From assembly GCF_044324785.1 (NCBI RefSeq), contig NZ_CP172127.1: a DNA stretch of 64,000 bases; one strand, given 5' to 3'. The position numbers and the translations under genes are program-made. Each line of letters begins with the position of its first letter. Position 1 is the stretch's first letter. This DNA comes from Escherichia coli (lineage in GTDB: Bacteria; Pseudomonadota; Gammaproteobacteria; Enterobacterales; Enterobacteriaceae). The notes beneath the pieces were generated by a model that had not been told where the DNA came from, did no database searches, and saw nothing but the letters and a program-made list of their open reading frames with translations. This document shows, one piece after another, positions 17,651 to 60,924 of the stretch.

Positions 17651-17718
<68 letters not shown>

Positions 17719-17719
17719 G

Positions 17720-17756
<37 letters not shown>

Positions 17757-17777
17757 GGGCAGGCTACGGAGATAGTA

Positions 17778-19384
<1,607 letters not shown>

Positions 19385-19419
19385 TCAGGGGGCAGATAGT
19401 GCCGTGTTTGCTCACTGGC

Positions 19420-19594
<175 letters not shown>

Positions 19595-19595
19595 T

Positions 19596-23222
<3,627 letters not shown>

Positions 23223-35086: not shown

Positions 35087-35162
35087 TGGTGGCCCCTGCT
35101 GGACTTGAACCAGCGACCAAGCGATTATGAGTCGCCTGCTCTAACCACTGAGCTAAGGGGCC
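35087..35162 (-). tRNA. ileX: tRNA-Ile(CAU), lysidine-modified minor isoleucine tRNA
   Basis: Minus strand reads GGCCCCTTAGCTCAGTGGTTAGAGCAGGCGACTCATAATCGCTTGGTCGCTGGTTCAAGTCCAGCAGGGGCCACCA: 7-bp acceptor stem, CAT anticodon, encoded CCA end. Confidence 0.9.
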
Positions 35163-35286
35163 ATGGTAGCGGATTATAAAGTAACTCCGTGTCGCAATCC
35201 AGCCATTACCGCGCGCCTGCTGTTTTTATAAACAATGTATTTTCAATCCGTTATACTTTTCCTGGTGATGTTAGAAAGGAGTAAAT

Positions 35287-35793
35287 ATGGTTGAGGATAT
35301 TTTGGCTCCAGGGTTACGGGTCGTGTTTTGCGGTATCAACCCTGGGCTTTCATCCGCCGGGACTGGTTTTCCCTTTGCTCATCCGGCAAATCGCTTCTGG
35401 AAGGTGATATATCAGGCCGGGTTTACCGACCGTCAGTTGAAGCCGGAAGAGGCGCAGCATCTGCTGGATTATCGTTGTGGCGTCACCAAACTGGTAGACC
35501 GTCCAACGGTGCAAGCCAATGAAGTTTCAAAGCAAGAGCTACACGCAGGCGGGCGTAAGCTGATTGAAAAAATTGAAAATTACCAACCACAAGCGTTGGC
35601 GATTCTGGGCAAACAAGCATATGAACAGGGATTCAGCCAGCGCGGTGCACAGTGGGGGAAACAAACGCTCACCATTGGTTCGACGCAGATTTGGGTGCTG
35701 CCAAATCCCAGCGGTTTAAGTCGCGTTTCACTGGAGAAACTGGTTGAAGCGTATCGCGAGCTGGACCAGGCGCTGGTAGTGCGGGGCCTGTGA
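35287..35793 (+). CDS. mug: G/U mismatch-specific DNA glycosylase Mug
   Basis: 168-aa [41 protein letters not shown]. Confidence 0.95.
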
Positions 35794-35849: not shown

Positions 35850-36413
35850 TTATTCTTCCGCCAAACGGTCTCTGACTACCATAAGCGCAAATCCCAGCAG
35901 ATTTTTCCCCTTCCAGTGAGATGGCACACCGGCATGAGGATGATCTTTTGCAAGGCCAATCCCCCAGAGTTTATCCACCGGGCTGGCTTCAACCAAAATG
36001 CGGGACTGTGTATTTAGCAAGAATGTTTTCAATGCCGAATGTTGGCTAAATTTGTGATAGTTCCCTTCACAGACCAGCTCAAAGCAACTGGCTTGCCAGC
36101 GTTGTTCATCAAAGTTTGTCACCTGCCTCCCCAGCTTTTTGGCTTCTGCCGGGGTCGCCGCCGCCAGAATTCTGGCAAGCGTTTTACTGTCATTAAACAG
36201 CCGCGCTTTTCCTGCCATCATCCAGTGCTCTGCGGTAGCGTAGGTTATACCACCATAGGTAAAAGGCGAACCCTGCCACCACTGACTAAAGCAAGAGGCG
36301 GTAATTTCGTTATTCGAGGCAGGTTGATGGCCCCAGAACCACAGGTATTTCACTTTTTTCCCGGAATCAAGGGCGGAAAGAAGGGCGGGGAGAGAATAGT
36401 ATCCTTGCTGCAT
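35850..36413 (-). CDS. NADAR-domain (YbiA-like, DUF1768) protein
   Basis: 187-aa ORF with hallmarks of the YbiA/NADAR family (...GITYATAEHWMMAGKA...WGIGL...GKNLLGFALMVVRDRL); sits between rpoD and mug. Confidence 0.7.
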   Translation of the reverse strand: MQQGYYSLPALLSALDSGKKVKYLWFWGHQPASNNEITASCFSQWWQGSPFTYGGITYATAEHWMMAGKARLFNDSKTLARILAAATPAEAKKLGRQVTNFDEQRWQASCFELVCEGNYHKFSQHSALKTFLLNTQSRILVEASPVDKLWGIGLAKDHPHAGVPSHWKGKNLLGFALMVVRDRLAEE

Positions 36414-36430
36414 TGCCAGATTTCCTTAAT

Positions 36431-36454
36431 AAAAAAGCCCTCACGATGGAGGGC
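36431..36454 (-). terminator. rpoD rho-independent terminator
   Basis: Minus strand gccctccatcgtgagggc hairpin followed by U-run, just after the rpoD stop. Confidence 0.65.
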
Positions 36455-36472
36455 TTATGCATATCTTTACGA

Positions 36473-38314
<1,842 letters not shown>

Positions 38315-58257: not shown

Positions 58258-59314
58258 GGCTTTGTTGAATAAATCAGATTTCGGGTAAGTCTCCCCCGTA
58301 GCGGGTTGTGTTTTCAGGCAATACGCACGCTTTCAGGCATACCTGCTTTCGTCATTTTGTTCAGCGCTCGTACCAGGGCCATAGCCTCCGCAACCTGACC
58401 ATCGTAGTCACGCAGCGTCAGTGAACCCCCGAACAGCTGTTTTACCCGGTACATCGCCGTTTCCGCTATCGAGCGACGGTTGTAATCTGTTGTCCATTTC
58501 CACCGCGCATTACTCCCGGTCATTCGCTGATTAGCCACTGCACGGTTACGGTCTGCATATTCACCGGGCCAGTAACCCGCACCTTTTCGGGGAGGGATAA
58601 GCGCGCTGATTTTCTTACGCCGCAGTTCATCGTGACATAGCCGGGTATCGTAAGCGCCATCGGCGGCGGCTGACCTGATTTTCCGGTGGGTTTGCCGGAT
58701 TAACCCGGGGAAGGCCTCTGAGTCCGTAACGTTGTTCAGCGACAGGTCAGCGCAGATGATTTCATGTGTTTTACTGTCAACGGCGAGATGCAGCTTACGC
58801 CAGATACGGCGGCGTTCCTGGCCATGCTTTTTGACTTTCCACTCGCCTTCACCGAAGACCTTCAGCCCGGTGGAATCAATTACCAGGTGTGCGATTTCAC
58901 CCCGGGTGGGCGTTTTGAAACTGACATTAACCGACTTTGCCCGCCTGCTGACACAGCTGTAATCCGGGCAGCGTAGCGGAACGTTCATCAGAGAAAAAAT
59001 GGAATCAATAAAGCCCTGCGCAGCCCGCAGGGTCAGCCTGAATACGCGTTTAATGACCAGCACAGTAGTGATGGCAAGGTCAGAATAGCGCTGAGGTCTG
59101 CCTCGTGAAGAAGGTGTTGCTGACTCATACCAGGCCTGAATAGCTTCATCATCCAGCCAGAAAGTTATGGAGCCACGGTTGATGAGGGCTTTATTGTAGG
59201 TGGGCCAGTTGGTGATTTTGAACTTTTGCTTTGCCACGGAACGGTCTGCGTTGTCGGGAAGATACGTGATCTGATCCTTCAACTCAGCAAAAGTTCGATT
59301 TATTCAACAAAGCC
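58258..59314 (-). mobile_element. IS903-family insertion sequence (IS5 family, IS903 group), 1057 bp
   Basis: Perfect 18-bp terminal inverted repeats GGCTTTGTTGAATAAATC (58258-58275; complement at 59297-59314); length and ends match recalled IS903/IS102; flanked by 9-bp direct repeat. Confidence 0.9.
58314..59237 (-). CDS. IS903-family DDE transposase (307 aa from GTG; ORF track extends it to 322 aa from TTG at 59282)
   Basis: Protein ...KFKITNWPTYNKALINRGSITFWLDD...DGAYD...; fills the element between the inverted repeats. Confidence 0.85.
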   Translation of the reverse strand: MAKQKFKITNWPTYNKALINRGSITFWLDDEAIQAWYESATPSSRGRPQRYSDLAITTVLVIKRVFRLTLRAAQGFIDSIFSLMNVPLRCPDYSCVSRRAKSVNVSFKTPTRGEIAHLVIDSTGLKVFGEGEWKVKKHGQERRRIWRKLHLAVDSKTHEIICADLSLNNVTDSEAFPGLIRQTHRKIRSAAADGAYDTRLCHDELRRKKISALIPPRKGAGYWPGEYADRNRAVANQRMTGSNARWKWTTDYNRRSIAETAMYRVKQLFGGSLTLRDYDGQVAEAMALVRALNKMTKAGMPESVRIA

Positions 59315-60590: not shown

Positions 60591-60624
60591 TATTACGGGC
60601 CGTCTGGCCCGTTTTTGTGTTGCT

Positions 60625-60924
60625 TTATTCTGCTTTATCAATAGGCGGGATAGCCGGAGGAGATTGAAGATCTGCTACCGAATTATTGCGCGCTTCCAGT
60701 TCACTGATGCGCTGCTCTAGTAATGCCAGTTTCTCACGAGTCCGTAACAGGACTTGCGTCTGTACGTCGAATTCTTCGCGGCTCACCAGATCGAGACGCG
60801 TCAGCTGCGCTTGTAGGGTTTGGCGGATTTTTTTCTCCACATCTTCCCCGAACTCCCTGATTCCTTTAGGCATTGATTCGTGAACCTGGCGAGCGATTTG
60901 CTCAATTTTTTTCGGGTCAATCAT
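60625..60924 (-). CDS. ubiK: Ubiquinone biosynthesis accessory factor UbiK (YqiC)
   Basis: ORF 60625..60984, start trimmed to [35 protein letters not shown]; coiled-coil. Confidence 0.8.

Follow-up and report, generated by a model that had tools for sequence, protein, structure and literature searches.

The open reading frame (ORF) between rpoD and mug in the window, i.e. the whole stretch of 64,000 nucleotides of Escherichia coli DNA analysed here, encodes a stand-alone NADAR protein, which belongs to the SCO5665-like group with an N-terminal extension and is not an orthologue of YbiA. The gene, its locus and its chemistry have already been published under the name of "sigma-70-linked" stand-alone NADAR, and the version in the window is a new allele of this known, biochemically characterised gene and resembles that of E. 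fergusonii. We consider it likely that the product is a functional sigma-70-linked NADAR N-glycohydrolase acting on nucleic-acid ADP-ribose, expressed by read-through from an old polymorphic locus.

Cihlova and co-workers (2024, Toxins 16:208, PMC11125620) sorted the NADARs of E. coli into four subtypes, one of which is a stand-alone NADAR encoded with rpoD, dnaG and rpsU in EPEC O127:H6 and other pathotypes. The protein that they expressed, "EPEC NADAR (residues 1-187)", removes ADP-ribose from guanosine and not from thymidine in ssDNA, and it rescues DarT1 toxicity partly or weakly (PMC11125620). The accession given for the E. coli stand-alone NADAR in the supplement of that paper, WP_001183948.1, belongs to the protein that the E2348/69 annotation places between rpoD and mug. 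This protein shares with that of the window the rpoD-mug locus, a length of 187 aa and all contact residues (see below) and is 94.7% identical to it in amino acid sequence, while the differences at 10 of the 187 positions (12, 17, 33, 35, 54, 78, 109, 112, 137 and 149) spare the contacts. A 2026 paper (PMC12945103) assigned "E. coli NADAR" and SCO5665 of Streptomyces coelicolor to the same family, NADAR, and reported that the NADAR and YbiA families also remove cytidine-linked ADP-ribose, in ssDNA and ssRNA, whereas DarG1 and the phage NADARs do not.

Assignment of the ORF behind rpoD

Table 1. Coordinates of the NADAR gene, its neighbours and associated elements in the window
Feature	Position	Strand	Basis and remarks
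NADAR-family CDS, stand-alone "sigma-70-linked" subtype	35850..36413	-	ORF list; ATG to TAA, 187 aa
Shine-Dalgarno-like AAGGA	36423..36427	-	direct reading; 9 nt 5' of the NADAR ATG
rpoD intrinsic terminator	36428..36456	-	terminator scan and folding; between rpoD and the NADAR start
rpoD (sigma-70)	36473..38314	-	ORF and homologous-locus annotation; same-strand upstream neighbour
mug (G/U mismatch DNA glycosylase)	35287..35793	+	ORF; convergent downstream neighbour of NADAR
NADAR-mug spacer, 56 bp between stop codons	35794..35849	.	6-bp hairpin GAGCGG...CCGCTC, T-run not clear
Haplotype-specific segment	35787..36469	.	blastn breakpoints 35786 and 36470; alignment; genome counts

The ORF codes for a single-domain protein directly 3' of rpsU-dnaG-rpoD, an arrangement matched in E2348/69 and SMS-3-5. 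Its ATG at 36413 follows the rpoD stop codon at 36473 on the same strand, with a spacing of 59 bp, and the RpoD protein of the window is 100% identical in amino acid sequence to that of SMS-3-5. On the other side mug is intact, and ileX (tRNA-Ile CAU, 35087..35162) lies beyond it in a K-12-like order. The final codon of mug encodes Leu, vs Arg in K-12, because the variable segment starts at that codon. The terminator scan called no terminator in the NADAR-mug spacer. In E2348/69 the annotation lists the mug gene beside NADAR as a pseudogene, in which a stop codon interrupts the frame at Q121 (locus L083, 994-1500).

An earlier note on this DNA had described a 187-aa ORF downstream of the rpoD terminator and convergent with mug, which is present exactly as listed in Table 1, and had seen NADAR hallmarks in its translation. 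The latter reading is borne out by profile, fold and residue evidence. The Pfam profile NADAR (PF08719, DUF1768) matches the protein with E=1.5e-53 and 181.9 bits (cut-off 35.1) over profile positions 7-162 of 163. An AF2 model built from 20 homologues reached a pLDDT of 94.3 and a pTM of 0.90, and a Foldseek search with this model returned only two significant matches from the PDB, namely 8BAU (E=5.7e-11, TM 0.75) and 2B3W (TM 0.71/0.77).

The top structural match, 8BAU, is the NADAR protein of Phytophthora nicotianae with ADP-ribose (Schuller et al. 2023, PMC11543638), in which the ADP-ribose contacts and catalytic residues are E43, K50, R79, W89, R93, E125, D130 and W133. Seven of these eight residues are kept in the window protein as E62, K69, R96, W106, E142, D147 and W150 (window NADAR numbering) and are invariant in the alignment of 20 homologues. 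The chain numbering of 8BAU is shifted by two with respect to the publication, and all eight residues fit this shift. The eighth residue, the pyrophosphate contact R93, is replaced by C110, and Cys is found there also in the other orthologues from Escherichia and Citrobacter; the P. nicotianae protein differs further in its overall sequence (~30-40% identity) and in the build of its N-terminal extension. E142, which aligns with E125 of 8BAU, occupies the position that defines the subfamilies: Glu is found there in YbiA and stand-alone NADARs, Asp in the DarT1-linked and His in the phage NADARs (PMC11125620, PMC11543638).

The N-terminal extension carries the motifs FW27GH and SQW45W, which the non-YbiA homologues, including those from Streptomyces and Bacteroidota, share with a conservation of at least 90% and which YbiA lacks. 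SCO5665 (ScNADAR), the partner of the guanine/cytosine ADP-ribosyltransferase ScARP (PMC12945103), belongs to the same NADAR branch as the window protein, and Streptomyces homologues are 55-60% identical to the latter over nearly the full length. Assuming a constant offset, W53, W71, E87, K117, E167, D172 and W175 of SCO5665 would correspond to W27, W45, E62, K92, E142, D147 and W150; W27 and W45 are thus the putative counterparts of the two Trp residues (W53 and W71) for which base binding has been proposed. The genomic context of SCO5665 is unlike that of the window NADAR, and a ScARP-like transferase is not known in E. coli.

Intact orthologues of 185-187 aa are present in five genera, and the window gene shows a dN/dS of 0.09-0.10 against the alleles of SMS-3-5 and E2348/69. 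The gene is under purifying selection; a pseudogene or a chance ORF was rejected on the grounds of dN/dS and of the conservation across homologues.

The earlier note had called the protein NADAR/YbiA-like and had connected it with both ADP-ribose and riboflavin intermediates. Its placement in the NADAR family stands, as does the link to ADP-ribose, which is documented by the experiments with the E2348/69 orthologue, whereas the protein is not an orthologue of YbiA, and the activity on riboflavin intermediates is known for YbiA and its plant homologues and not for the orthologue. K-12 YbiA (b0798; 2B3W) has the core fold (TM 0.71-0.77), the Glu at the subfamily-defining position and the match to TIGR02464 in common with the window NADAR, but it lacks the ~25-residue N-terminal extension (FWGH/SQWW) and is reported to be unable to rescue DarT1 toxicity (PMC11125620). 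Orthology was rejected because the two proteins are only 32% identical and YbiA is encoded at another locus (rhlE/ybiA/dinG/ybiB in K-12, not rpoD-mug).

A role of the window protein in metabolite damage control, as for K-12 YbiA, is unlikely in our view. The NCBIfam model TIGR02464 (riboflavin biosynthesis intermediates N-glycosidase) matches it with 160.8 bits (cut-off 73.7), which makes a small-molecule substrate possible, and names pointing the same way are in circulation: some RefSeq records call the orthologue ybiA, and protein-cluster sources use "N-glycosidase YbiA" and "ribA/ribD-fused uncharacterized protein". TIGR02464, however, scores YbiA (169.5 bits) and the window NADAR alike despite their low identity and therefore does not discriminate between the subfamilies, while the riboflavin-intermediate activity is cited for YbiA and plant homologues only (PMC11543638, PMC12945103), and the orthologue of the window protein has a demonstrated nucleic-acid de-ADP-ribosylase activity. 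The two activities can coexist.

NADARs are known to act as DarT1 antitoxins (PMC11125620, PMC11543638), the PADLOC model PDC-M42C matches the window protein with 132.6 bits, and the partial rescue from DarT1 by the E2348/69 orthologue would also fit an antitoxin or immunity component of an anti-phage or toxin-antitoxin system (DarTG1-like, YarT-YbiA-like or PADLOC PDC-M42). We nevertheless regard such a role as very unlikely, since both neighbours, rpoD and mug, are core genes, none of the genera examined has an ART-like ORF next to the gene, and the catalytic position is occupied by Glu (E142) and not by the Asp of DarT1-linked NADARs. Membership of a defence system was rejected: one component alone of the multi-gene candidate PDC-M42 was matched, the score with the model NF053876 ("NADAR family anti-phage protein") is 33 bits, far under its cut-off of 240, and no toxin is adjacent. 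The anti-phage context mentioned in the earlier note is accordingly not seen at this locus, where neither a toxin nor a defence partner adjoins the gene.

DarG1 of E. coli C7, a DarT1-linked NADAR, belongs to the same superfamily and catalyses in vitro the reaction on guanosine-ADPr that the E2348/69 NADAR also carries out, but it is characterised by a catalytic Asp, a large basic N-terminal extension, an adjacent DarT1 and efficient rescue, none of which is seen for the window NADAR; its neighbours (rpoD and mug) and the Glu in the catalytic position likewise set it apart from the DarTG1 antitoxins (BC4488 family). The weak rescue by the orthologue suggests that the guanine-ADPr made by DarT1 may not be the natural substrate.

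The rpoD terminator and expression of the NADAR gene

The terminator scan and folding revealed a hairpin between rpoD and NADAR with a G+C-rich stem of 8 bp (36456..36435), followed by the T/U-run UUUUUUAUU. The hairpin ends 21 nt 5' of the NADAR ATG, and the Shine-Dalgarno-like AAGGA (36427..36423) and the ATG are both accommodated within these 21 nt. An equivalent hairpin with a U-run lies 13-21 nt 5' of the start codon in SMS-3-5, E2348/69, E. fergusonii, Superficieibacter, Citrobacter sp. NCU1 and Intestinirhabdus alba, and sequence comparison shows AGGA or GGAG in the remaining genera at the position equivalent to AAGGA. Because the loop lengths differ between genera, the sequences were folded singly; one compensatory change, from an A-U to a G-C pair, was found among them. 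The stem (8 bp) is shorter than that of the terminator in K-12 (10 bp).

No sigma-70-like promoter was found on the minus strand between positions 35200 and 37200, in a crude scan that could miss a promoter inside the 3' end of rpoD. The published description of the NADAR gene as "integrated into a conserved operon" with rpoD (PMC11125620) needs a qualifier, since the gene lies behind the terminator of the operon and any co-expression must be due to read-through. Such read-through from the rpoD operon is plausible from the arrangement of the sequence elements. The position directly behind the terminator together with the lack of a recognisable promoter of its own makes a low expression of the gene, sustained by rpsU-dnaG-rpoD transcripts that run past the terminator, the most likely situation.

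Polymorphism of the rpoD-mug interval and the mosaic allele of the window

In MG1655 a stretch of 78 bp with no annotated gene separates rpoD (3213047..3214888) from mug (3214967..3215473), and a gene-free spacing of 78 bp is found also in NBRC 3301, in agreement with the earlier note, which expected the interval to be short in K-12 and to lack this gene. In the window the interval measures 679 bp, and the alignment shows the 78 bp of K-12 to be unrelated to it: homology with K-12 ends within the last codons of mug and restarts 3 nt past the rpoD stop codon (alignment and blastn). The 78-bp spacer of K-12 folds as a REP-like palindrome plus a terminator with a 10-bp stem, and it is this unrelated REP and terminator sequence that takes the place of the segment 35787..36469 in K-12 and in ~99% of E. 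coli.

Comparison of the rpoD-mug interval across genomes agrees with the proposal of a strain-variable accessory gene beside rpsU-dnaG-rpoD. The NADAR gene is present in 62 of the 5,426 complete RefSeq E. coli genomes (1.1%), with a single chromosomal copy in each, and the same 62 genomes are the sole records among the 5,426 that cover at least 80% of a mug-NADAR-rpoD query. The carriers include SMS-3-5 and EPEC E2348/69. STEC O157:H7 has been named among the carriers of stand-alone NADAR (PMC11125620); at odds with this, the gene is absent from an O157:H7 strain sampled among the complete genomes, and the label O157:H7 was not found among the 60 carriers listed.

The allele of the window was not found in any of the 5,426 complete RefSeq E. 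coli genomes searched, and the exact window protein occurs on 296 NCBI contigs labelled E. coli. The complete E. coli genome closest to the window has 97.6% identity across 15 kb including NADAR; for a 4.8-kb flank the best match among complete E. coli is strain N3, which lacks the NADAR gene (99.1%), and the next-best records reach ~98.5%. The closest relative of the window NADAR is the allele of E. fergusonii, with 97.0% identity at the nucleotide and 98.4% at the amino acid level, whereas the adjacent mug genes are just 83.6% identical. Against the E. coli-type allele the NADAR gene shows a dS of 0.25, compared with 0.03-0.11 in the flanks.

A mosaic structure is evident from the informative sites, defined as positions where SMS-3-5 and E. 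fergusonii differ. In the flanks (dnaG, rpoD and mug) the window follows SMS-3-5 at 183 sites and E. fergusonii at 16, while inside NADAR it follows SMS-3-5 at 8 and E. fergusonii at 27 (p=2e-17, Fisher's exact test for the split between flanks and NADAR). The E. fergusonii-like tract spans from ~36471 to ~36015. An E. fergusonii-like allele within E. coli-like flanks suggests homologous recombination and not a mobile element.

Beyond E. coli, the order rpoD-NADAR-mug is conserved in E. fergusonii, represented by six complete chromosomes with the E. fergusonii-type allele, and in Superficieibacter, Citrobacter sp. NCU1 and R56 and Intestinirhabdus, with aa identities of 79%, 75-77% and 74%, respectively. 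These cross-genus identities of NADAR are within the range of those of mug (76-87%). More remote NADAR homologues (55-63%) from Serratia silvae, Chitinophaga and Streptomyces reside in other genomic contexts. A scan of species representatives missed E. fergusonii, which carries NADAR; its absences (Salmonella, Klebsiella and others) are therefore unreliable and were not used, and the distribution would fit both ancestral presence with many losses and recombinational spread. The simplest reading of the comparisons would be an old locus that most E. coli have lost, with the REP/terminator sequence in its place, and whose alleles were swapped between Escherichia lineages by homologous recombination.

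It is extremely improbable that the gene is a recent foreign insertion (i.e. mobile-element cargo) or a functionless, decaying remnant. A carrier frequency of just 1.1% of complete E. coli genomes and a dS between E. coli NADAR alleles (0.25) above that of the flanks (0.03-0.11) could be taken in this sense, but the position and the upstream terminator are shared by five genera, the reading frames are intact throughout and dN/dS is ~0.09. Origin from a mobile element was rejected: the borders of the segment are free of direct and inverted repeats, of IS and of integrase, the composition is genome-like (GC 50.2% and GC3 52.1% for NADAR, GC 52.2% for the window), and a search of 72,556 plasmids and 50,697 phage records gave no relatives with >60% identity.

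Past mug/ileX, replaced regions are found in some NADAR genomes, which suggests that ileX is an integration hotspot. The locus from GCA_044082415.1, which has the window NADAR allele, contains a CbtA/CbeA toxin-antitoxin island beyond mug/ileX (L086, 4426-6564); a locus with the E. fergusonii-type allele has phage-like genes for a capsid protease and a D5 primase there (L091, 8426-12564), and further loci with this allele have selB and glycine-reductase-like genes.

The window differs from K-12 also in other places. Between fadH and ygjK (17680-19612) there are ~1.9 kb not present in K-12, with an ORF (17825..19366, minus strand) whose product, 513 aa long, has three repeats within it (...INLINxxTD...VNELxVAMTNAL...FSGHTITFT...). 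No Pfam or PADLOC matches were found for this protein; 269 of the 5,426 complete E. coli genomes have it, under the name of "hypothetical protein". The K-12 toxin-antitoxin pair higB-higA (~930 bp) is missing between rlmG and fadH (~15480), and the K-12 fimbrial cluster yqiGHI-ygiL (~6.6 kb, with IS2 in K-12) is absent between glgS and ubiK (~60621-60694). An insertion of 1,058 bp (58258-59314) splits yqiK, leaving a yqiK ORF of 502 aa, and contains an ORF (58314..59282, minus strand) for a 322-aa transposase, which we take to resemble the IS903 group of the IS5 family.

Predicted function and implications

By analogy with its characterised relatives, the window NADAR would cleave the N-glycosidic bond between ADP-ribose and a nucleobase (N2 of guanine, and also cytosine) in ssDNA and RNA and thereby restore the unmodified base. 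The pyrophosphate of ADP-ribose is predicted to be bound by K69, R96, W106 and W150 and the distal ribose by E62, E142 and D147, while W27 and W45 in the N-terminal extension would hold the modified base. A likely role for an enzyme of this kind, produced at a low level, would be the protection of nucleic acids against guanine/cytosine ADP-ribosyltransferases of phages, competitors or other loci. The rpoD-mug locus may be regarded as an old presence/absence polymorphism, in which most E. coli have the REP-plus-terminator haplotype and alleles probably move among Escherichia lineages via homologous recombination at the conserved flanks.

A more speculative and on balance doubtful extension is that "rpoD - leaky terminator - NADAR" is a regulatory device, with the polymorphism kept by toxin selection and the alleles exchanged. 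If this were true, a low, growth-coupled dose of a de-ADP-ribosylase would be tied to the macromolecular-synthesis operon, and NADAR would serve in the housekeeping repair of ADP-ribosylated G/C in ssDNA/RNA at replication forks, primers and transcripts. The presence or absence of the gene (apparently common in E. fergusonii, ~1% in E. coli) would then be maintained by putative G/C ADP-ribosylating toxins, and its alleles would be exchanged between Escherichia species through homologous recombination.

As the existence, the position and the in vitro chemistry of the gene have been published, little is added here by way of discovery. What our analysis contributes is the terminator found across genera, the wider synteny, the strong purifying selection, the frequency of 1.1% and the inter-species mosaic allele. 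Natural carrier and non-carrier strains with near-identical flanks exist for comparison, and these details should make it easier to test why a de-ADP-ribosylase adjoins the gene for sigma-70 and what it protects against.
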